32,000 nt of DNA from an uncultured bacterium (GTDB taxonomy: Bacteria > Verrucomicrobiota > Kiritimatiellia > RFP12 > UBA1067): the NCBI GenBank assembly GCA_902769585.1, contig CACXPT010000024.1, forward strand, positions 12,682-44,681, read 5' to 3'. The notes beneath the pieces are model-generated. The model ran no database searches. It had not been told where the DNA came from and saw only the letters and a program-made list of their open reading frames with translations. This document shows positions 1 to 13,657 of the stretch, in pieces; position 1 is the first letter of the stretch, and the number at the start of each line of letters is the position of its first letter. The translations under genes and the position numbers were made by a program.

Positions 1-2
1 GG

Positions 3-140
3 CATCACGATGTGCTGGCGCTGTGGATACCTGATACGCCGGAGTCGCCTACCGTGTGCGCCACGCGGGCGATGGCCGCGCGGCTCAAGGACGTGGAATA
101 TCCGTTGCGGTTGGTGGCGGACGGCAAGGTGGAGAAGTGA
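3..140 (+). CDS. 3' end of an upstream gene cut by the window edge; product unknown
   Basis: The frame is open from the window edge to TGA at 138-140 and reads ...HHDVLALWIPDTPESPTVCATRAMAARLKDVEYPLRLVADGKVEK*. Third-position G/C bias matches the neighbouring genes. The stop overlaps the Shine-Dalgarno of the next gene. It is too short for the ORF track, and no family was recognised. Confidence 0.4.
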   Translation, partial: HHDVLALWIPDTPESPTVCATRAMAARLKDVEYPLRLVADGKVEK

Positions 141-151
141 GGAGCTTGCGA

Positions 152-1021
152 ATGGTCAGCTGTGAAAACTTGGCGGCCCGTGCCAGCATGATGCGGACGA
201 TCCGCGCCTTCTTCGATTCGCGTGGATTCGTGGAGGTGGAGACTCCGGTGCGGATACCCGCTCCCGCGCCGGAACCGCACATAGATTGTCCGGCGAGCGG
301 AGATTGGTTCCTGCGCGCTTCGCCGGAGCTGCAGATGAAGCGTCTGCTCGCCGCCGGGCTTCCGCGCATCTACCAGATCGGACCATGCTTCCGAGAAGGC
401 GAGAGGGGAAGACGCCATGCGCCGGAGTTCACCATGCTCGAATGGTACCGCGCGGAGGCTGGGTACATGGAGATAGCGCGCGACATGGAGGAGCTTGTGG
501 GCGAGGTCCTGCAAGCGCGCTGGGGCGCGTCGGGGCCGCAGCCGTTCGCGTGGATCACGGTCCGCGAGGCGTATCGGCGGTGGGCGGGCTGGGATCCGGT
601 AGAGGAATGGGACCAGGACCGCTTCGACTTCGACATGGCCACCAAGATAGAACCGAATCTTCCGAAGGAGCCGCTGTTCCTTGCAGACTATCCCGCGCCT
701 GCCGCGTCGCTCTCGAAGCTGAAGGAGGGTGATCCGCGAGTGGCGGAACGCTGGGAACTGTACGTCGACGGAATGGAGCTCGCGAACGCGTTCACTGAGC
801 TGACGGATGCCGCCGAGCAGCGGCGGCGCTTCGAGGCCGCGCGCGAGGAGAGGCGTGCCCTCGGCGAGGCCGACTATCCGCTCGACGAGGAATTCCTCGC
901 GGATCTGCAGCGCATGCCGCCAGCCGGCGGCGTGGCGCTTGGGGTGGACCGTCTCGCGATGCTCGCGTGCGGGGCTGCCTCCATCGACGAGGTCAGGGAT
1001 ATGATATACTACCGCAAATGA
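152..1021 (+). CDS. epmA: EF-P--(R)-beta-lysine ligase (GenX/PoxA-type class II lysyl-tRNA synthetase paralogue)
   Basis: This is ORF 56..1021 with the start moved to ATG 152, which has GAGGAG at 139-144; the 5' extension overlaps the previous gene. It carries class II aaRS motif 2 (FREGERGRRHAPEFTMLEWY) and motif 3 (GVALGVDRLAML). There is no anticodon-binding domain and the protein is about 290 aa. Confidence 0.85.
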   Translation: MVSCENLAARASMMRTIRAFFDSRGFVEVETPVRIPAPAPEPHIDCPASGDWFLRASPELQMKRLLAAGLPRIYQIGPCFREGERGRRHAPEFTMLEWYRAEAGYMEIARDMEELVGEVLQARWGASGPQPFAWITVREAYRRWAGWDPVEEWDQDRFDFDMATKIEPNLPKEPLFLADYPAPAASLSKLKEGDPRVAERWELYVDGMELANAFTELTDAAEQRRRFEAAREERRALGEADYPLDEEFLADLQRMPPAGGVALGVDRLAMLACGAASIDEVRDMIYYRK

Positions 1022-1053
1022 CAAGAATCTTTCTTGAAGGAGCTTTATAAAAA

Positions 1054-2790
1054 ATGAACTTGCGTAGCAAATGGGAATTCGGAGAGGCGCGCGAGTGCCG
1101 CCGCGGTCTGCTGTGCGGCATGGGCATCAGTCCGGAGGAGCAGGCGCGTCCGCTCATCGGCATCGTCAACAGCTGGAACGAGTACAACCCCGGCCACGTG
1201 CATTTGAAGGCGCTCGCGGAGCGCGTGAAGCAGGGCGTGCGCGACGCGGGCGGCTTCCCCGTGGAGGTGATGACCACCGGCATCTGCGACGGCATGGTGC
1301 TGAAGGACCCGAAGTACGTGGAGATCCCCTCGCGCAACTCGATCGCCGACCAGGTGGAGATCACCGCCGAGGGCAACTTCTTCGACGGCATGGTGATGCT
1401 CTCTACGTGCGACTCCATCGTGCCCGGACACCTGATGGCGGCGGCGCGGCTCGACATCCCGACCGTGGTGGTGACGGGCGGCTACATGCCGCTCGGCACG
1501 TTCCGCGGACGCGAGGTGCTGCACATTCACGCGCAGGACAAGGTAGGCACGATGAAGGCCGGGAAGATCGACCCAGACGAGTACAACGGCCTCATCGAGC
1601 ACTCCTGGGGCACGTGCGGCGGGTGCACCTCGATGACGACGGCCAACTCCATGTGCATGGTTGCCGAGGCGCTCGGAATGTCGCTCCCCGGCAACTCCAC
1701 CGTGAGCGCCGTCTCGAGCGAGCTCGCCCTCATCGCTTACCGCGCCGGCGAGCGCGTGATGGCGCTCGTGAAGGATGGGATCACGGCGCGGAAGATCATC
1801 ACGCCCGCCTCGATCCGCAACGCGATCAAGATGGACATGGCGGTGGCGGCGAGCTCGAACCTCATCCTCCACATCCCGGCCATCGCGCACGAGGCCGGCT
1901 ACGACGAGCCGTGGTGGAAGTACTTCGACGAGGCGTCGAACGAGATCCCGCTCCTCGCGCACCTCGCGCCGAGCGGTCCGTACAATTTGCATGATCTCGA
2001 CCTCGCGGGCGGGCTGCCGGCCGTGTTGAAGGAACTGCTGCCGAAGCTCGACGGCGACTGCCTCACTGTGACCGGCAAGACCCTCGCCGAGAACGTTGCG
2101 GGTGCGCGGCGGTACCCGATTTCCGGCGCGGGGCGCGCCGGAAACGTTTGCGGTGCCGCTGGGGACAACGTTTGCGGCGCGCCCCGCGCCGCATCAGAGA
2201 ATGTGATCCACACGCTGGCGGAGCCGGTGATGCGCAAGCCAGGCATCGGCGTCCTCTACGGCAACCTCGCGCCGGAGGGGGCGATCATCAAGATCGCCGC
2301 CGTGCCCGAGCACCTTTTCACGTTCACGGGTCCCGCGCGCGTGTTCGACTCGCTCCATGCCGCGCTCGACGCGCTGCGCGCGGGCGAGGTGAAACCGGGC
2401 GACGCGTGCGTGCTGCGCTTCATGGGACTCAAGGGACGCTTCGGCACGACGGCGTTCACGTTCCAGGAGGAGCTGAAGGGGCACGCCGAGCTGTACAACT
2501 CCTGCGCCGTGATCACGGACGGACGCTTCTCGGGCGGCACTTCGGGCCTCTCGGTGGGATACGTCTCGCCCGAAGCCGCGCTGGTGGGTCCGCTCGGCCT
2601 TGTGAAGGACGGCGACACGATCGTGATCGACATCCCGAACCGACGCATCGACATGCAGGTGGACGATGCGGAACTCGCGCGGCGCAAGGCGTCGTTCAGC
2701 TGGACGTTCGACGAATCGGCCTATCCGCGCTACCTGCGCCTCTTCGTGAAGAACGTCGGGTCGATGGCCCACGGCGGAATCTGGGAATAG
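1054..2790 (+). CDS. ilvD: IlvD/Edd family dehydratase (dihydroxy-acid or sugar-acid dehydratase) carrying an in-frame repeat insertion
   Basis: The ORF is 578 aa with GAAGGAG at 1036-1042. Family motifs present: [34 protein letters not shown] and [22 protein letters not shown]. The segment [25 protein letters not shown] (about 2122-2196) is encoded by the palindromic repeat rather than by family sequence. Confidence 0.88.
2121..2195. repeat. REPIN-like inverted doublet of the 19-nt GC-rich palindromic core, inside the IlvD/Edd CDS
   Basis: The forward core CCGGCGCGGGGCGCGCCGG lies at 2123-2141 and the inverted core GCGGCGCGCCCCGCGCCGC at 2174-2192. The 16-nt arms 2124-2139 and 2176-2191 are exact reverse complements. 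The spacer contains a duplicated AACGTTTGCGG. Confidence 0.9.
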
Positions 2791-2837
2791 AGAAGAGTGG
2801 ATAGTGAAGAGTGAATAGGTAAAAAGAAGAACGAGAG

Positions 2838-4090
2838 ATGATGAACACAAGAAGGCAGTTTCTGCAGTTTGCGGGTGGGGGATTTGCGGCCGCATGGGCG
2901 ACATTTCATGCGCGGGCGCTCGCCGACGTGGCGGCGCCGCGTCCGCCGCTGCGCCTCGGCGTGGTGAGCGACATCCACATCCGCAACAACGGCAAGACGG
3001 AGAACGGCTACGTCGCCGGCTCCACCGGCACGTTCCGCGCCGCCCTGGAGTATTTCCGCGAGCGCCGCGTGGACGCCGTGGTGATCGCCGGCGACATGGC
3101 CGACACCGGAAAGATGTCCGAGCTGGACCGCGTGGGACAGGTCTGGCGCGAGGTGTTCCCCGACTGCAAAGGGTTGGACGGCGCGCGCGTGGAGCCGATC
3201 TTCGTGTACGGCAACCACGACCGCCTCGCGTGGAAGTGGCCCCTGCGGGGGGCGGCCGCCAAGGATCCCGAGAAGGTCGCATACGAGAAGGACATCCCGG
3301 CATACGCCGCCGCGCACGCGGCCGAGCTCGACCTGCACGGGCCGCGTCCGTTCTTCTGCGTGCAGCACCCGCATCCGAAGGGGACGCTCTTCAGCTACTG
3401 GGGCAAGGGGGCCTCACCGACGACCGTTCCGTGTGGCAGGGCGCGTTCACGGCCGTCAACACGTGCACGCTACTGCAGATCTCGACGCCCTACGGCGGCG
3501 AGTGGCAGTGCGTGAATTCGCGCCGCAAGGACACGAGCCAGGCCCGTCACATGGGTGCGACGAGCCGCAAGGGACGTCAGGGCATGGTGATGGACGTGTG
3601 GCCCGACCGGCTGGAGATCGAGCGGCGCGAGTTCGCGCTCGGCGAGGTGGCGGGGCCAGTGCGTACGGTGCCGGTACCAGCAAATCCGGCGAATCCCGTC
3701 TATGGCTACGCCGCGCAGGCCGCGCGGACCAGTGCGCCGAAGTTCCCTGTGGGCGCGGCGGTGTCTGTGACGCGTCAGCGTGGTCAGAACACGAAGAAGG
3801 AGATGGAGGACCAGATCGTGGTCGAGTTCCCCTCCGCGTGCGCCGGCGGCGAGAAAGGCCGCGTGCTGCTCTATGAAATCCGTGCGCTCGTGGAAGAACG
3901 CGAGGTGGGCATGTGGAGGCTGGCGCAGGAACTCCACTTCCATCCGCTTGGGCGCGTGCCGACGTCCTCGCGCCTGGTGATCGGCGCAGACGAGGTGCCT
4001 GCGGGCGCGGTGACGTTCCGCGTGACGCCAGTCGGGTTCTTCCACAAAGGCGAACCGATCAAAGGCACGTTGCAGGCGAAGCGATCGTGA
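2838..4090 (+). pseudogene. Tat-signal metallophosphoesterase (calcineurin-like), frameshifted at a G5 run
   Basis: The N-terminal part is ORF 2838..3515: RRQFLQF twin-arginine signal, then VVSDIHI, AGDMAD, VYGNHD and VQHPHPKG motifs. It continues in the frame of ORF 2894..4090 (LTDDRSVWQGAFTAVN...GMVMDVWPDRLEIERREF). The switch is at GGGGG 3407-3411. Adding one G gives ...SYWGKGGLTDDRSVWQG.... No GHxH motif was seen. Confidence 0.7.
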
Positions 4091-6069
4091 GTGACGTGTT
4101 GGTCATCGGCGGCGGACTGGCCGGGTGGCGCGCGGCGGAGGCCGCCGTGGCGTCGGGTTGTTCCGTGACGCTGGTCGCCAACGGGTCGGGCAATTCGCCG
4201 GAGATCCACGCGCTCAATGTGCCGGTGGGGCCGGGCGACTCGGTGGAGCTGTTCGTCGAGGACACACTGAAGAGCGGTGGCGGCTCGTGCGATCCAGCGC
4301 TGGTGGAGGTGCTGTGCCGCGAGTCGGTGAAGCTGGCGGACGAGTTTCCGTTCGACCGCAACGCCGACGGATCGTACAAGATGATCCAGCCGCTTGGCTG
4401 CAGCGTGCCGCGTTGCGTCTCGATCGACCACAAGATCGGCGCGTGGGCGCTTGCAAAGATCAAGCGCGCACTCGTCGGGAAGGTCGAGGTGGTGGAAGGG
4501 CGCGTGACCGGGCTGGAGGCGGGAGGAACCGGCGCGGGGCGCGCCGGTAACGTTTGCGGCGCGCCTCGCGCCGCAATTTCACCTCCGCATCCGTTCTTCC
4601 CGGGTCGAGATTATTTCATGCTTTCCCTTGTCAATGTCTCGCGGGGTGAACATGTCGACTATTGGGAACTTCCAAATTGCGTTTATCACGTATGTTTTCG
4701 CCTCGCCGATTCCGTCGCTGTGTCCGTAAGGCGCGCATGGTCAGACGAACGCGAGGAGTTGGAAGCTCGTCGACGTGGGGAAGGGCCTCCGCTAAGCGAG
4801 GAAGAGTATCGTTCGCTTTTGGGATTACTGTCAGAGAAGATCGGGAGTTACCTCGATGCAGGGAATGGCTCATGCCTTTTGGCTCGGACTGGGATTGCAG
4901 ATTGGTTGCGTGATGCGATTTTCAACGATGATGGTTTAAGGTATGTCATTCACGCCGTTGGGATCATGCCAAACCATGTGCATGTCATCGTCCAGCCGTT
5001 GGAAGGCTTTCGCTTGCGGGAGATCGTCCGGCAGTGGAAGGGGATTAGTGCACACGCAATCAACAAGGTGTTGGGGCGCTCCGGGAAGGTCTGGATGGGC
5101 GATTTTTACAATCGGATCATTCGCGATGCCGATGAATATGCCAATCAGGTGGAATACGTGTTTGGGAATGACATGGTCTCGGCGTGGAAGAGGTCCGATC
5201 CGGCGCGGGGCGCGCCGGAAACGTGTGGGGTGGTGCCGGCGCGGGGCGCGCCGGAAACGTGTGGGGTGGTGCCGGCGCGGGGCGCGCCGGGAACGTTTGC
5301 GGCGCGCCTCGCGCCGCAAAAGGGAGCGGCGGAACGTTGCCTTTTTGCTCGTGCCGTTGTGTTGGCGACGGGCGGATGGTGTGGGAAGTACGCCTTCAGC
5401 GACAATCCGCCGGAACTGCGCGGGGATGGCATCGCGCTCGCGCAGTCGCTCGGCGCGGCGGTGCGCGACCTGGACGCCGTGCAGTACGAACCGACCGTCG
5501 CGCTCGCGCCGGCGCGATTGCGCGGCATCCCCGTGATCACCACGATGCTCCACGAGGGTGCGACCTTTCGCAATTGCTTCGGCAAGGAATTCCTGCCGGA
5601 CAAGCACGCCAACAAGGACGCGATCTCGCGGGCGATCCGCAGTGAGATCGAGGCTGGACGTGGTGTTCCGGCGCGGGGCGCGCCGGAAACGTGTGTGGGG
5701 AAGCCGGCGCGGGGCGCGCCGGAAACGTGCGGTGTCTGGTACGATGCCACTGGCGTGCCGCGCGAGATTCTCGAAACCCGCTATGCGGACACCGTGCGGC
5801 GCTACGCGGCGTGCGGCGTCGACATCACGCGCGAGCCGATGCTCGTGGCGCCTGCGCCTCACACATCGCTTGGCGGCGTCGTCATCGACGCGCGATGCCG
5901 CGTGCTGCGTGCGGACAGCACGCCCGTCCCCGGCCTCTTCGCCGCCGGCGAGGTGACGGGTGGCGTGCATGGCCGCAACCGCGTGGGCGGCAACGCAGGC
6001 ACGGAAGTTCTTGTGTTCGGTCGAATCGCGGGCGAGTCTGCGGCGCAATACGGGAAGCGGCCTCAATGA
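4087..6069 (+). CDS. FAD-dependent oxidoreductase (NadB/SdhA/FrdA flavoprotein-like), interrupted in-frame by three repeat/transposase insertions
   Basis: The start is GTG 4087, overlapping the upstream TGA (GTGA). The Rossmann motif is DVLVIGGGLAGWRAAEAA. AVVLATGG is present. The C-terminal signature is GLFAAGEVTGGVHGRNRVGGNAGTEVLVFGRIAG. The host-like segments 4087-4527, about 5335-5667 and 5740-6069 are all in one frame with the inserts. The 3' end overlaps the convergent RND gene by 7 nt. Confidence 0.75.
   Translation: MSDVLVIGGGLAGWRAAEAAVASGCSVTLVANGSGNSPEIHALNVPVGPGDSVELFVEDTLKSGGGSCDPALVEVLCRESVKLADEFPFDRNADGSYKMIQPLGCSVPRCVSIDHKIGAWALAKIKRALVGKVEVVEGRVTGLEAGGTGAGRAGNVCGAPRAAISPPHPFFPGRDYFMLSLVNVSRGEHVDYWELPNCVYHVCFRLADSVAVSVRRAWSDEREELEARRRGEGPPLSEEEYRSLLGLLSEKIGSYLDAGNGSCLLARTGIADWLRDAIFNDDGLRYVIHAVGIMPNHVHVIVQPLEGFRLREIVRQWKGISAHAINKVLGRSGKVWMGDFYNRIIRDADEYANQVEYVFGNDMVSAWKRSDPARGAPETCGVVPARGAPETCGVVPARGAPGTFAARLAPQKGAAERCLFARAVVLATGGWCGKYAFSDNPPELRGDGIALAQSLGAAVRDLDAVQYEPTVALAPARLRGIPVITTMLHEGATFRNCFGKEFLPDKHANKDAISRAIRSEIEAGRGVPARGAPETCVGKPARGAPETCGVWYDATGVPREILETRYADTVRRYAACGVDITREPMLVAPAPHTSLGGVVIDARCRVLRADSTPVPGLFAAGEVTGGVHGRNRVGGNAGTEVLVFGRIAGESAAQYGKRPQ
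4529..4574. repeat. REPIN-like hairpin (forward plus inverted core) flanking the transposase module on the left
   Basis: The forward core CCGGCGCGGGGCGCGCCGG lies at 4529-4547, the spacer TAACGTTT at 4548-4555, and the inverted core GCGGCGCGCCTCGCGCCGC at 4556-4574. The inverted core has one C-to-T mismatch to a perfect palindrome. Confidence 0.9.
4618..5199 (+). CDS. REP-associated tyrosine transposase (RAYT; IS200-like HUH/Y1) module, in-frame with the host ORF and lacking its own stop codon
   Basis: It starts at ATG 4618. The first strand is VYHVCFRL. The HUH motif is IMPNHVHVIV. The catalytic-Tyr region is VWMGDFYNRIIRDADEYANQVEYVFGND, comparable to E. coli RayT WQPRFWEHAIRNTKDYRHHVDYIYINP. 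GC content is visibly lower than in the flanks. Repeat cores flank it on both sides. The coding frame runs straight into the repeats at 5200. Confidence 0.8.
5200..5317. repeat. Repeat cluster: two identical 36-nt direct units followed by a full REPIN-like hairpin
   Basis: Segments 5200-5235 and 5236-5271 are both CCGGCGCGGGGCGCGCCGGAAACGTGTGGGGTGGTG, and each translates as [13 protein letters not shown] forward core follows at 5272-5290, then GAACGTTT, then the inverted core at 5299-5317. Confidence 0.92.
5668..5739. repeat. Two direct 36-nt repeat units inside the flavoprotein CDS (third insertion site)
   Basis: Perfect forward cores lie at 5668-5686 and 5704-5722. The units translate as [12 protein letters not shown] and [12 protein letters not shown]. 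The total is 72 nt, or 24 codons. Confidence 0.9.
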
Positions 6070-9000
6070 AGACGGCGAATCAGTTCGCGTAGTCGCTGGA
6101 AGATGGCGTAGAGGCCGGGGGTGAAGCAGATGCCTACGAAGGTGGCGGCGAGCATTCCCGAGAAGGTGGAGATGCCGATCGCCTTCTGCGAGCCCGCGCC
6201 TGCGCCTGAGGCGAGGACGAGCGGCAGGACGCCGCAGAGGAAGCTCCATGCCGTCATCTGCACGGCGCGGAAGCGGAGGTCCGCGCCCTTCATCGCGGCG
6301 TCCGTCACGGATAGGCCCGTATCGCGCTGCTGCTTGGCGAACTCGACCATGAGGATCGCGTTCTTTGCGGAGAGGCCGATCAGCATCACCATGCCGAGCT
6401 GCGCGTAGATGCTCATCGGCGTGCCTGTGACCCATAGCCCCACGTACGCGCCGCCGAGCGCGAAGAGGATGGAGCACATCACGGAGAGCGGTACGGTCCA
6501 GCTTTCGTACTGCGCCACCAGGAAGAGGTAGGCGAAGAGCGCCGCCATGCCCATCAGGAATCCGAGCCGGCCCTCGTTCTCCTTCTCCTGTCTACTCATC
6601 TCGCTCCACTCTATGTGGTATCCCTCTGGCGGCGTAAGCTTCTCGATGGCCTTTATGAGAGTGAGCCCTGCGACTCCAGGTGCGGCCTGCGCATTGAGGC
6701 TTGCGGACGGCATCTTGTCGAAGCGCGTCACCTGCTTGGGGCCGACCTCGTAGGTGATGTTCGCGATGGCCGAGAGCGGTACGGACGCGCCGCTCGCTGT
6801 CGTAACATGGAGGTCCGCGACATCCTCCACCGAAGCGCGGTACGAGCCGGCAGACTGCACGATCACCTCGTACGCGCTACCGCCGAGCGTGAAGTCGTTC
6901 ACGTACACGCTCGCGAGCTTGTTCTGGAGCATGGCGAAGACTGCGCTTGGCGAGACGCCGAGGATCTCGGCCTTCCTGCGGTCGAGGGTAAGGCGTAGCT
7001 GTGGGGTGTCCGCGCGGAAGGTGTTCATCACCATGGCCGCCTCTGGAAGGGCGGAGACCTGACGAGCGAACTTCTCGGCGGTTGCGGCAAGTTCGGCGCT
7101 CGTGGCACCTGCGTCGGAGCAGAGGTTGAAGCCCACGCCGCCCACGCGGCCGAGACCCATGATGGGGGGTGATGTGAAGCAGCGGATGCGCGCGGCGTGG
7201 ACGTCCGCCGTGCGGCGCATGATCTCGGCGATGATCGCCTTGACGGACTTGTCGGGCGTGCGGCGCATGTCCCAGTGGTCCAGCGCCACCATGCCCTGTC
7301 CACAGTTCTCGCCGGAGCCTGACATGGCGCCAGAGCCAGACATGAGCATGATGCCGGCGATTCCGGGGATGTCCTTGATGCGCGCCTGGATGTCCTCCAG
7401 CACCTGGTTGGTGCGCTTGAGTGTTGCGCCCTGGGCGAGTTCGATGTCGATGGTGATGTTGCCCTTGTCCTCGTCCGGCAGCAGCGTCTCCTTCACCATG
7501 TCCTTCGCGAACCACACGCCGGCGCATGCGGCGGCGAAGAGAAGCGCCGTCACGATGCCGCGCCGCACGAGCAGTCCTGCGACCGCGAGGTATACCTTGC
7601 GGGAGCCGTCGATCGCGATGTTGACGGGCGCGAACAGACGGGATGGCTTGCCGGGCTTGCGCAGGAGGAGCGAGCAGAGTACTGGGGAGAGGGTGAGCGC
7701 CACGCATGTGGAGAGCGAGAGGGCCACGCACATCGTGAACGCGAACTGGATGTACATCTTGCCGACCATGCCGCCGTAGAAGACGAGCGGGATGTAGCAG
7801 GCTATGGTCACGAGCGTGGTGGCGATGACGGCGCTGGTGATCTGGCGCATGGACTTCTTTGCGGCCTCCTTCGCGGAAAGCCCTTCCGTAGCCATGAGGG
7901 TCTGGGTGTTCTCCACCACTACGATGGCGTCGTCCACGAGCGAGCCAATCACGAGGATGAGACCGAACATCGTGAGGATGTTGATCGTGTAGCCGAACGC
8001 CCACACGAAGATGAAAGTTGCGAGCAGCGATACCGGGATGGCGGCGGCAGGGACGATGGTGGCGCGCCAGTCCTGCAGGAAGAGCCAGGTGATCAGCACG
8101 ACGAGGCCGAGTGCCATGAAGAGGGTGGAGACGATCGCCTTCATGAAGACGAGCGTGAACGCGGTCGCGTCGTGCACGGTCTCCATCTCCACGCCTGCGG
8201 GGAGGCGCTTGTCCCATTCAGCCAGCTCAGCCTTCACGCGCTTGACCACGGCGAGGGCATTCGCCTCTGGCGTCTTGTACACGGAGAGGACGATCGCCTC
8301 CTTGCCGTTCATGAGCGACTTGCCGGAATAGCTCTTCGAGCCGAGCTCGATGCGCGCCACGTCGCCGAGCAGCACCTGTCCGCCGGTGGCTGGGTCGCTG
8401 CGGACGACAATGTCGGCGAACTCGTCGGCGGATTTCAGCCGGCCTTCGGCGTTGAGCTTGTAGGAGAGGTAGCGGCTCGCGTACTCGCTGCCGACCGTGC
8501 CGGCGGCGGCCTGGACGTTCTGCTTCTCGATGGCGGAGGAGACATCGGTGATAGAGAGGTTGAGCGAGGCCATGCGCACTGGGTCGAGCCAGATGCGCAT
8601 CGCGTACTCGCGCGAGGCCATCACTTCTGCGACGGAGACGCCATCGAGGCGCATGACCGCTTCCTTTATGTTCTTCTCCACGTAGTCGCCGAGCTGCTGG
8701 AGGGACTGCTTGGTGCCGTCCGTGGTGAAGGCCCAGAGGGCGAGCATGTCCGAGTTGCGCTTCTGGACGGAGATGCCCTGTTGCTTGACGGTGGAGGGGA
8801 GCTTGCGCTCGGCGCGCTTCACGGCGTTCTGTAGGTTGACGAGCGCCATGTCGGTGTCGGCGCCGCTCTTGAACGTGACGGAGCAGGAGTAGCTGCCGTT
8901 GTTGTCGCAGGAAGACGAGTAGTAGAGGAGGTTCTCCACGCCGTTGATCTGGTCCTCCACGGGGATGGCGATGGAATCGGCGACGACCTGCGCGCTAGCG

Positions 9001-11848: not shown

Positions 11849-13657
11849 ATGGAGAACATCAGGCCCATACTGTACGGCGTGGCGGACTATGCCGAGCTGC
11901 GCAAGGCGAACGCCTGGTTCGTGGACCGCACCGCGAAGATCCGCGACCTGGAAGCGACGCGCTACGCGATGTTTTTGCGTCCGCGCAGGTTCGGGAAGTC
12001 GCTCTGGACGTCCATTCTCGAGGCGTACTACGACGTGCGCTACGCCGACCGTTTCGACGAGTTTTTCTCTGGGACGGACATCGGGGCTAATCCGACGGAC
12101 GAGCACGGCAAGTATCTTGTGCTGAGATTCGACTTCGCGTCGATCACAAAGGACGAGGAAAAGGTTCAGGGAGACTTCGACTACAAGGCGTCGCTGCAGT
12201 GCGACACATTTGCGAGAAACTACAGAGAGATTCTCTCGGACGAGCTCGCAGACCGCATCCTGAACGCGCCGGACATCGGAAAGAAGCTTGCGCAGATATA
12301 CCTTGGCCTCAAGGGGACGGACAAAAAGCTCTACGTCATCATCGACGAATACGACAACTTCACGAACACCATACTCGCCGAGCATGGACAGGCCGTGTAT
12401 GACAGTCTCTGCCACGGCGATGGATTCTTCAAGGACTTCTTCACGTCGCTCAAGTCTGCGACTTCCGGTACCGAAGCGCCCGTGACGCGTCTATTCATAA
12501 CCGGCGTGTCGCCCGTGACGATGGACGACGTGACGAGCGGCTTCAACATCGGGACGAACATCTCGCTCGACCCGCAGTTCGCCGACCTGACCGGATTCCG
12601 CCACGATGACCTCCGCGCCATCGCCGACTACTACGCCCCGTGCTGCGGCTTCGACGCCGACAAGGCGTACAACGCAGCGCTCGCATGGTACGACAACTAC
12701 CGCTTCGGCAGCGTGGACGCGCCGGCGCTCGCCAACACGACGCTCGTCCTCTCGCTTTTCAGCCATCTGTGGCGCACGAAGCAGTTCCCCGACGACTTCA
12801 TCGACGAGAACCTGCGTACCGACTACGCGAAGATACGCCATCTCATCACGGCGGACAGGCGGCTCAACGGCAACTTCCATGTCCTTGAGAATCTGCTGGC
12901 GGGAGGTTCGCTGTCGGAGCGGCTCGTGAAGTCGTTTCAGGCACGGGAGCTTTCGCAGAAGGAGAACTTCACGTCGCTCCTCTATTGGCTCGGCATCACC
13001 ACGATCACTGGCGGCAAGTTCGGGAAGATGGAGTTCGGCGTCCCGAACGAGACGCTGAAGGAGCTCGCGGCGAAGATCATACCCGCAGCCTACGCCGATG
13101 TCCACAAGATCGACGAGAGGGTGTATGGCATCAATGACGGGCTCTGCGAGTTCGCCGACAATGGAAATTGGCGCGGATTTGTCGGGACGCTTGCAGAGAT
13201 CGCGAAGGAGAACTTCGCGGTGCGCGACGCGGTCGAGGGCGAGAAGGTGGTGCAGTCGACGCTCGTCGCGCTGCTCTGCGCCGCCGGCGGGCCGTATTTC
13301 GTCCGGCACGAGCGCGAGGCGGGCGGAGGGTTCTACGACATCGCCCTCGTGCCGCAGCTCTCCCGCTGGCCGGACATCGCGCACGCCGCGCTCATCGAGA
13401 TGAAGTACGTGAAGGCGGGCGATCCTGCGCCGACGGCGGAAGAGCTCGCGAAGATCAAGGCCGAGGCCATTGAGCAGCTTGATCGGTACTCTTCCGACCC
13501 GGCCCTTGTATCTGCTTGGCACCTTGCCCCTCAACCTTCAAACTCTCAACCTTCAAACTCTCAAACTCTCAAACTTTCAAACTTGCAAACAGTTGCCCTC
13601 CACCGTCTCGTCCTCGTGTTCCACGGAGGCGATGCGCTGCTGGCGGAAGAGGTGTAG
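11849..13657 (+). CDS. Predicted AAA-ATPase (PF09820-like) fused to a C-terminal PD-(D/E)XK nuclease-like domain (PDDEXK_9-like)
   Basis: The N-terminus is typical of the family: YGVADYAELRKANAWFVDRTAKIRDLE...FLRPRRFGKSLWTSILEAYYD. The C-terminus carries GGGFYDIALVP...AALIEMKYVKAG and VLVFHGGD. A low-complexity stretch, PQPSNSQPSNSQTLKLSNLQ, is encoded by a tandem repeat near the 3' end. Confidence 0.8.
   Translation: MENIRPILYGVADYAELRKANAWFVDRTAKIRDLEATRYAMFLRPRRFGKSLWTSILEAYYDVRYADRFDEFFSGTDIGANPTDEHGKYLVLRFDFASITKDEEKVQGDFDYKASLQCDTFARNYREILSDELADRILNAPDIGKKLAQIYLGLKGTDKKLYVIIDEYDNFTNTILAEHGQAVYDSLCHGDGFFKDFFTSLKSATSGTEAPVTRLFITGVSPVTMDDVTSGFNIGTNISLDPQFADLTGFRHDDLRAIADYYAPCCGFDADKAYNAALAWYDNYRFGSVDAPALANTTLVLSLFSHLWRTKQFPDDFIDENLRTDYAKIRHLITADRRLNGNFHVLENLLAGGSLSERLVKSFQARELSQKENFTSLLYWLGITTITGGKFGKMEFGVPNETLKELAAKIIPAAYADVHKIDERVYGINDGLCEFADNGNWRGFVGTLAEIAKENFAVRDAVEGEKVVQSTLVALLCAAGGPYFVRHEREAGGGFYDIALVPQLSRWPDIAHAALIEMKYVKAGDPAPTAEELAKIKAEAIEQLDRYSSDPALVSAWHLAPQPSNSQPSNSQTLKLSNLQTVALHRLVLVFHGGDALLAEEV
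13530..13590. repeat. Tandem repeat (15-mer x2, then 8-mer x3-4) within the ATPase/nuclease CDS
   Basis: CTCAACCTTCAAACT occurs at 13530-13544 and 13545-13559. CTCAAACT occurs at 13560-13567 and 13568-13575. TTCAAACT lies at 13576-13583 and TGCAAAC at 13584-13590. The tract is AT-richer than its surroundings. Confidence 0.9.

Follow-up and report, generated by a model that had tools for sequence, protein, structure and literature searches.

The question raised by this locus is what a family of short palindromic repeats does inside protein-coding genes. The DNA concerned is a stretch of 32,000 nt from an uncultured bacterium of the Kiritimatiellia, Verrucomicrobiota (contig CACXPT010000024.1, assembly GCA_902769585.1; in the following the window). 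Systems of repetitive extragenic palindromes (REPs) and REP-associated tyrosine transposases (RAYTs) are the textbook case of repeats located between genes, and a RAYT is typically present in one copy per genome and inherited vertically. How RAYTs are expressed, how they function and how they persist are long-standing questions of REP/RAYT biology. REP-RAYT systems were reportedly the subject of work by Nunvar in 2010. In the window all ten REP copies are located inside two coding open reading frames (ORFs), and a RAYT is nested within one of these, a flavoprotein gene. We assign a probability of roughly 0.8 to the explanation that the repeats are REP elements of a REP/RAYT system ('REPtron') living inside coding sequence, not between genes. 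The observations behind it are the anatomy of the locus, conservation of the frame, purifying selection on three parts of the gene, copy numbers that vary by whole units, the stability of the hairpins and recurrence elsewhere. An earlier note on this DNA had interpreted the repeats as a family resembling REPs and REPINs (REP doublets forming hairpins) that sits in frame inside genes. This interpretation is supported; the RAYT between the two main REP clusters (4597-5199) was overlooked in it.

The flavoprotein gene is composed of the following elements.

4087-6069, plus strand: host flavoprotein ORF of 660 aa with a GTG start, FAD_binding_2 in two stretches and Y1_Tnp (Pfam)

4529-4574, plus strand: left REP doublet, consisting of forward core 4529-4547, TAACGTTT and CCT-loop inverted core 4556-4574; 15 translated residues

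4597-5199, plus strand: RAYT coding segment, from the FPG motif (4597) over the HUH motif NHVHV (4972-4986) to the catalytic-Tyr motif YANQVEYVFGND (5137-5172)

5200-5317, plus strand: right REP array, three direct 36-nt units (5200, 5236, 5272) and the CCT-loop inverted core 5299-5317; translated as a 12-residue peptide twice, then PARGAPGTFAARLAP

5293-5319, plus strand: strand supplied by the inverted REP, codons for TFAARLAPQ where RAYT-free alleles show FTATVSD (host beta-hairpin strand)

5668-5739, plus strand: second REP site of the flavoprotein, two direct 36-nt units in frame; 22 translated residues

The repeats were located by pattern search. The 19-mer core CCGGCGCGGGGCGCGCCGG is present in seven perfect forward copies, at 2123, 4529, 5200, 5236, 5272, 5668 and 5704, exactly where the earlier note had placed them. 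Together with an inverted copy at 2174, which has 2 mismatches, this amounts to 8 matches at ≤2 mismatches in the window (0.01 expected). The inverted copies at 4556 and 5299 carry 3 mismatches each and have a CCT loop in common, which agrees with the claim of three inverted copies of which two share a variant. In total the window contains 10 REP copies, 7 perfect and 3 variant, compared with 0.01-0.9 expected. The shared variant, formerly read as a C-to-T change, is a conserved second hairpin type which is common to distant lineages and encodes a beta-strand of the host. The exact 36-nt units were also described correctly: 5200-5235 equals 5236-5271 letter for letter, with the same 12-residue peptide encoded by each, and Tandem Repeats Finder reports for the right array a period of 36 with 2.7 copies and 98% match.

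Folding as single-stranded DNA confirmed the hairpins that had been proposed for the core and the doublets. The core reaches -11.2 kcal/mol (z -3.5), and the doublets 4529-4574 and 5272-5317 form 17-bp hairpins of -27 kcal/mol (z -4.4). Values of -41.2 kcal/mol (z -7.4) and -59.2 kcal/mol (z -7.2) were obtained for the doublet 2123-2192, located in an IlvD-type dehydratase gene, and for the right array 5200-5317, respectively. The palindromic spacer proposed for the inverted doublets, NAACGTTT, is found in two of the three, while the IlvD doublet has a spacer of 32 nt. A conserved (A)AACG(T) tag adjoins the foot of the hairpin in the window as well as in two relatives, L010 and L012. The window repeats are hence short GC-rich imperfect palindromes, repeated and with a tag at the hairpin foot, as REPs are. 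Moreover, 4529-4574, 5272-5317 and 2123-2192 are inverted REP pairs folding into one long hairpin each (z -4.4 to -7.4), as expected for REPINs. What they do not share with REPs is the extragenic location, and both ORFs that carry them have Pfam support on each side of every insert. The exact REP 25-mer occurs at 1 locus in GTDB representative genomes and at 7 JGI metagenome loci. A second repeat family of similar weight was not found in the 32 kb; a 15-nt tandem repeat at 13530-13590 (CTCAAACTTCAAACT, 3.9 copies, 89% match) is unrelated to the REP family.

The segment 4597-5199 scores 30.4 bits against Pfam Y1_Tnp (cut-off 23) and matches the E. coli TnpAREP structure (PDB 4ER8, E 0.003), and its relatives carry the name RayT in JGI. 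The HUH and Tyr motifs of the Y1 fold are both present, the corresponding region of 4ER8 aligns with them, and they are intact in 18/18 nested homologs. The doublet 4529-4574 and the array 5200-5317 flank the RAYT in inverted orientation, which is the layout of a REPtron, and REP hairpins flank the RAYT likewise in L007, L010-L013 and L014. The whole REP-RAYT-REP unit (4529-5317, 789 nt) forms a single frame with the flavoprotein (4087-6069). The source genome is represented by the 32-kb window, in which there is one copy of the RAYT.

This RAYT is not equipped with a start and a stop of its own as a free-standing gene is. It contains no stop codon and is read in the host frame at both ends. 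The FPG motif opens the RAYT in standalone relatives, too, and their start codons are located upstream of it. From the host N-half to the FPG motif no in-frame ATG, GTG or TTG is found in 4 of 5 lineages, and the sole in-frame start candidate in the window RAYT, ATG 4618, lies downstream of FPG; the corresponding Met is not conserved in the alignment of nested homologs. The base composition of the segment is particular as well, with a GC content of ~0.52 (0.68 in the flanks) and a GC content at third codon positions (GC3) of 0.57, compared with 0.81-0.87 in the host halves. Across six flavoprotein lineages the RAYT has a GC3 of 0.51-0.63 and the host halves of the same ORF 0.74-0.90. The nested RAYT thus represents a compositional island which is not adapted to the composition of its host despite strong purifying selection (window, L007, L010-L013, L014).

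The host ORF is identical to database protein P0001, and its top Foldseek matches are FrdA/SdhA/NadB. In assemblies from ENA, NCBI, JGI and Logan we found 17 further flavoprotein orthologs (610-794 aa, 54-92% identical overall) with FAD_binding_2 and Y1_Tnp in one protein. Position and frame of the RAYT are the same across all 18 aligned flavoproteins. The linker peptides beside it consist of lineage-specific repeats with variable copy number.

Nested RAYTs are not restricted to this flavoprotein. When 1.84 billion representatives were searched exhaustively for the RAYT segment, 5456 matches were returned, and about a third of the best 150 of these are at least 450 aa long and contain the full RAYT inside. 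According to Pfam the other hosts include Val/Ile-tRNA synthetase, alanyl-tRNA synthetase, UvrA, carbamoyl-phosphate synthase, HypF and PdxA, furthermore a chorismate-binding enzyme, DinG-like helicases, DNA methylases and a radical-SAM protein. The junctions in these hosts are again repeat peptides without a Met. The source names of nested RAYTs comprise Opitutales, Planctomycetota and Phycisphaerae, and they are found across Planctomycetota, Verrucomicrobiota and Lentisphaerae.

For valyl-tRNA synthetase (ValRS) from Phycisphaerae and other Planctomycetota, Y1_Tnp is contained in most of the 120 listed clusters at 90% identity. The insertion occupies one site in 8/8 aligned sequences, after GHFWYLRYPLVE and before TTRPETMLGD, where close ValRS relatives (73-89% identity) have no insert. 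One carrier is a cultured isolate, Anaerobaca lacustris (GCA_030012215.1). Its DNA has inverted hairpins on both sides of the RAYT, and GC3 is 0.72 in the RAYT vs 0.85 in the host.

The insertion site in the flavoprotein corresponds to a surface beta-hairpin of an FrdA/NadB-like flavoprotein. In the AlphaFold2 model (mean predicted local distance difference test score, pLDDT, 68.6) folded structure is seen for the RAYT and each half of the host, and the REP-encoded linkers 148-193 and 368-415 are unstructured with a pLDDT <50. At the site, the RAYT-free orthologs that are closest (74-92% identity over the host parts) have the short hairpin QFTATVSDAQERVPPM. In the RAYT-bearing alleles a strand of this hairpin is replaced by REP-derived DNA. 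After the RAYT, the CCT-loop hairpin encodes an F-x-A-R-L-A-P strand in every nested allele. It is preceded by AAACGTTTG in the window, L010 and L012, and the AAACGTTTG-GGCGCGCCTCGCGCC motif recurs in the latter two. Among hosts as similar as 88-91% identity, some alleles are filled and others empty. A clean insertion or excision of the RAYT was considered for this site and is unsupported.

REPs are also found in the window without a RAYT, at 5668-5739 of the flavoprotein and in a second gene:

1054-2790, plus strand: IlvD/Edd-family dehydratase gene with ILVD_EDD_N (aa 32-347) and ILV_EDD_C (aa 383-574); NCBIfam ilvD, E 1e-156

2123-2192, plus strand: IlvD REP doublet, consisting of forward core 2123-2141, a degenerate middle and inverted core 2174-2192; 24 translated residues

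The doublet falls into the linker between the two IlvD Pfam domains. Once translated, the solo REPs at both sites are short loop or linker inserts. The DNA of five relatives (L007, L010-L013) shows conserved synteny of IlvD/Edd, flavoprotein, Lactamase_B, AllG and SSF genes, and each lineage has its own REP family. In-frame REPs are present at similar positions in the Lactamase_B and AllG genes of the relatives.

Comparison with these relatives revealed a regularity in unit length and copy number. In seven genic tandem REP arrays across the lineages the period is a multiple of three: 36 nt in four of them and 33, 60 and 39 nt in the others. An eighth genic pair, in AllG of L012, has a period of 31 at 1.9 copies only, and an intergenic array of the sister lineage L010 shows a period of 59/29. 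Between close relatives the copy number differs by whole 12-codon steps at all four sites. The earlier proposal of a frame-preserving unit length is supported. The units beside the RAYT vary on both of its sides, as follows for the right array and the two solo sites.

Right array beside the RAYT: 3+1 units in the window, 4+1 in L013, 3+2 in L007

Flavoprotein site 2 (5668-5739): 0, 1, 2 or 3 units in close orthologs

IlvD site: empty in L010 and L011, 4 units in L004, a different REP variant in L012; 2 units are also seen

In the distant lineage L012 the IlvD interdomain site carries the REP variant of that lineage, with 21 translated residues. The IlvD site is either a permissive site which has been used repeatedly or one of ancient occupancy with later losses. 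Over all six frames the REP clusters of the window contain 1 stop codon, 5.8 being expected (P 0.023). That no copy lies outside a coding sequence, as stated in the earlier note, is correct for the window and incorrect for the family: the REP clusters of relatives are mostly genic, but one or two per locus are intergenic (arrays at L010 735-948 and L012 1270-1322). Since relatives carry intergenic copies, the exclusively intragenic location is a feature of the window only. A perfect REP copy at 417-435 of L008 (JAEEGL013106825.1) is located in DNA of lower GC content without a convincing ORF and is probably non-coding, the single such copy that the exact pattern recovered. At 1283-1301 of L006 (Ga0310695_10035884) a copy of the same REP is placed between RdgB/HAM1-like and histidine-phosphatase-like parts of a 518-codon open frame; it may bridge two genes into one ORF.

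Based on this anatomy, the most economical reading of the flavoprotein gene is one polypeptide, for which we infer the order host N-half, REP linker rich in Gly, Ala, Pro and Arg, RAYT domain, REP linker and host C-half. By analogy to E. coli TnpAREP and the TnpA of IS200/IS605, the RAYT would bind REP hairpins on single-stranded DNA, and the REPs of the window would be the substrate of its catalysis. Transposases of the Y1 type function in dimeric form. It may cut and join beside the conserved (A)AACG(T) tag, and this activity might seed new REPs as well as expand or contract existing arrays. In gene-dense genomes of high GC content, genes would be hit by many REP events. Persistence would be limited to events in permissive loops that keep the frame and bring no stop, selection acting as a filter on gain and loss alike. 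Such persistence of in-frame, stop-free events only would explain the periods in multiples of three together with the near absence of stops in six frames. The REPs would then act as flexible linkers and the RAYT as an inserted domain that is expressed through the host gene.

Several points weigh against this explanation. The best NCBIfam match of the RAYT is REP_Tyr_transpos (E 8e-14), the score of 51.8 bits being below the equivalog cut-off of 80. Filled and empty flavoprotein alleles differ by a replacement of 17-19 codons and not by a clean insertion; because of this hairpin replacement, a simple RAYT-mediated insertion or excision is not demonstrated at the site. The GC3 of the RAYT, which is 0.2-0.3 under the rest of the ORF in six lineages, is unexplained by long vertical residence. 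Protein searches see fusions only when they are in frame, and this ascertainment bias makes out-of-frame cases invisible. That the gene is translated as one continuous chain, and that the resulting fusion is active, is inferred. Finally, an internal ATG (window, L013) or GTG (L010, L012) is located 7-13 codons past FPG, a possible internal start.

The main rival builds on this last point. The RAYT would be expressed alone from the internal start (ATG 4618), the flavoprotein would consist of two assembling pieces or of halves which alone matter, and the shared frame would be incidental. The base composition of its own that the RAYT segment shows fits such an independent unit. However, initiation at this position would delete the conserved FPG motif, which is retained by standalone relatives, and the distant clade does not conserve the start Met. 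As the RAYT is followed by a stop codon in none of the lineages, even this product would run on into the C-half of the host. Moreover, the 18 flavoprotein lineages and the 8 aligned ValRS retain the frame although their numbers of REPs vary, and a model of internal initiation has no need for this. Taken together we consider internal initiation improbable, even if it is the strongest competitor of a RAYT translated as part of the host.

Alternatively, the flavoprotein gene could be dead, disrupted by a mobile element and left with a long ORF as a consequence of high GC content. An insert of ~250 codons within an enzyme of 390 aa and a frameshifted metallophosphoesterase gene next to it in the window would suit such a scenario. 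It is at odds with the selection on the gene. For the window, L013 and L007, the three closest alleles with a RAYT (synonymous divergence, dS, 0.25-0.73), the ratio of nonsynonymous to synonymous substitution rates (dN/dS) is 0.07-0.08 in the RAYT segment, 0.13-0.20 in the host N-half and 0.09-0.11 in the host C-half. With values this low in all three parts, neither is the host a pseudogene nor is the RAYT in decay. The 0.09-0.20 of the host halves fall within the range of RAYT-free alleles, the catalytic motifs are invariant in the 23 sequences aligned, and the same architecture is found in the essential ValRS including that of a cultured isolate. The data contradict a pseudogene, and we judge it very unlikely.

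A chimeric metagenome assembly, in which a RAYT locus from elsewhere was joined via shared REPs, has in its favour that REPs are repeated by nature and that the flavoprotein data are all metagenomic. The same layout recurs, however, in independent assemblies, samples and assemblers (window, L013, L007, L010, L011, L012) and the same design in the ValRS of the isolate. Neighbour joining groups the 18 flavoprotein-nested RAYTs and one fragment in one clade (exact in 17/40 bootstraps, with ≤1 intruder in 25/40), and divergence is co-linear, the pairwise identities of host and RAYT being correlated with r 0.56. An assembly artefact is contradicted by these data and hardly credible.

Equally far-fetched is the idea that the repeated peptides are selected protein features, i.e. 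low-complexity linkers unrelated to mobile DNA, to which translated repeats rich in Gly, Ala, Pro and Arg in loops may seem to point: it is contradicted by a DNA hairpin that is conserved while the peptide is not, by copies in unrelated proteins and intergenic DNA, and by the RAYT between the repeats. The same REP DNA is read in two forward frames in the window and in the reverse frame in L006, so that its peptide varies by site (e.g. HVSGAPRAG). As the repeat is read in differing frames, the conserved entity is the DNA and not the peptide.

Comparison with known systems helps to place a REPtron that lives inside coding sequence. Inteins and homing endonuclease genes are selfish enzymes inserted in frame into proteins that are conserved and often essential, at a single conserved site. 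The nested RAYT resembles them in its presence or absence among close hosts and in its expression via host translation. It differs in that the enzyme is a single-strand DNA transposase and not a LAGLIDADG or HNH nuclease. An intein was rejected: no Hint or splicing domain was found (Pfam scan, 718-aa ORF, E up to 0.01), and the junctions are REP-encoded and variable. As nothing suggests protein splicing, the insert is presumably kept in the mature protein. IStrons, which combine a group I intron with IS200/IS605 and are removed by RNA splicing (PMC4227781), also have an element of the IS200 family that is rendered harmless to the interrupted gene, whereas for the nested RAYT harmlessness would be achieved by in-frame translation. 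Neither an IStron nor IS200/IS605 was supported as a candidate, with 22 bits for NCBIfam transpos_IS200 (cut-off 55) and no adjoining tnpB. A known RNA element or intron was rejected as well, since Rfam (E up to 1, positions 1-8000) gave only sub-threshold matches of miRNA models on the hairpins.

A close resemblance exists to the REPtron or REP-RAYT of E. coli TnpAREP (PDB 4ER8; Ton-Hoang 2012, PMC3333891) and to REPINs (Bertels & Rainey, PMC3116915). Shared features are a Y1/HUH transposase with intact motifs, inverted GC-rich hairpins, REPIN-like doublets, the tag at the hairpin foot and a REP sequence owned by the lineage. In contrast, the window RAYT is not free-standing: it has no stop and no start upstream of its N-terminus and is in frame with an enzyme, and the REPs of the window are all within coding sequence.

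In-frame palindromic repeats inside genes are known from the intragenic GTAG/CGTC REPs (Di Nocera et al. 2013, PMC3733652) and from Rickettsia palindromic elements (RPEs), which lie in frame in genes (Ogata 2000, as cited in PMC3733652). These are likewise palindromes in functional genes that add loop peptides and vary in occupancy between relatives. As far as these accounts go, the reports deal with small repeats only and contain no transposase nested in frame; RPEs, in the cited account, are longer and without a known associated RAYT. The system in the window also differs from both by tandem 36-nt units that grow and shrink inside genes.

In TnpAY1 subclass 2.4 / RAYT group 4, in-frame REPs within tnpAREP, between the HUH and Tyr motifs, have been described (Quentin et al. 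2018, PMC6006769). From the reading of motifs, the window RAYT may belong to this subclass: its motifs are NH[IFV]H, WQ and YIxNNP, those of the window NHVHV and YVFGND and those of its relatives LWQ and YVxxNN. REPs are also in frame inside the RAYT, between the HUH and Tyr motifs, in the relatives P0125 and P0128. The study does not report RAYTs nested in host genes and left long fusions out of consideration, regarding them as 'gene fusions or annotation errors'. ORFs resembling circularly permuted RAYTs were observed in P0123, P0124, P0126, P0132, P0136 and P0143 (contigs up to 21 kb). Their order is REP peptides, the C-part of the RAYT (WKS...Y motif), REP peptides, the N-part ending at the HUH strand and REP peptides again. 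Either the RAYT is divided by REPs behind HUH, the arrangement being tandem or permuted, or the assemblies wrap around. In the full-text literature searched, which most subscription journals are outside of, in-frame REPs are described but no RAYT that is nested in frame within a host gene. Since in-frame REPs inside genes are already known, the in-frame nested RAYT is apparently the new part.

The neighbouring genes provide further context. In the window (1054-6069) and in L010-L012 the order is IlvD/Edd dehydratase, (metallophosphoesterase), FrdA-like flavoprotein, Lactamase_B, AllG and sodium:solute symporter, and this conserved gene order suggests a sugar-acid catabolic cluster. In comparison to L001 and L013 the metallophosphoesterase gene (2838-4090) misses 126 nt at 3280/3281 and 79 nt at 3409/3410 and is frameshifted in the window owing to their absence. 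The missing stretches are ordinary coding sequence including a GHSH motif. Contig L001 is 99.8% identical elsewhere and ends at position 4348 of the window (BLAST). Either the gene is a pseudogene specific to this strain or the frameshift stems from an error of the assembly.

A more far-reaching interpretation sees the REPtrons nested in frame as a lifestyle of its own that mobile or selfish DNA follows in the Planctomycetes-Verrucomicrobia-Chlamydiae (PVC) superphylum. A REP-RAYT-REP cassette without start and stop would survive within genes that are conserved and even essential to the host (ValRS, AlaRS, UvrA, CPSase and the flavoprotein) by being translated as a domain between linkers in a surface loop, similar to an intein without splicing, and filled and empty alleles as well as the low GC3 would result from repeated gain, loss or homing at one site. 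The low GC3 of the RAYT together with the coexistence of filled and empty alleles would be compatible with such a homing-like cycle of gain and loss. We put this forward tentatively, as an idea that has the odds somewhat against it.

For the biology of these bacteria the finding means that a host enzyme shares its reading frame with a transposase, which purifying selection maintains there. Because of this shared frame, host expression and transposase dose would be coupled. REP-encoded peptides are tolerated at many sites of enzymes and vary by 12-codon steps among strains. Annotation pipelines that discard 'unexpectedly long' transposase fusions drop a real and widespread architecture, and the ValRS of A. 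lacustris offers a testable system for a RAYT as an internal domain. After protein splicing in inteins and RNA splicing in IStrons, in-frame translation would represent a third route to harmlessness. If nested REPtrons do follow a lifestyle of their own, it would be one of stealth without splicing, with the dose of the transposase tied to the expression of the host gene.

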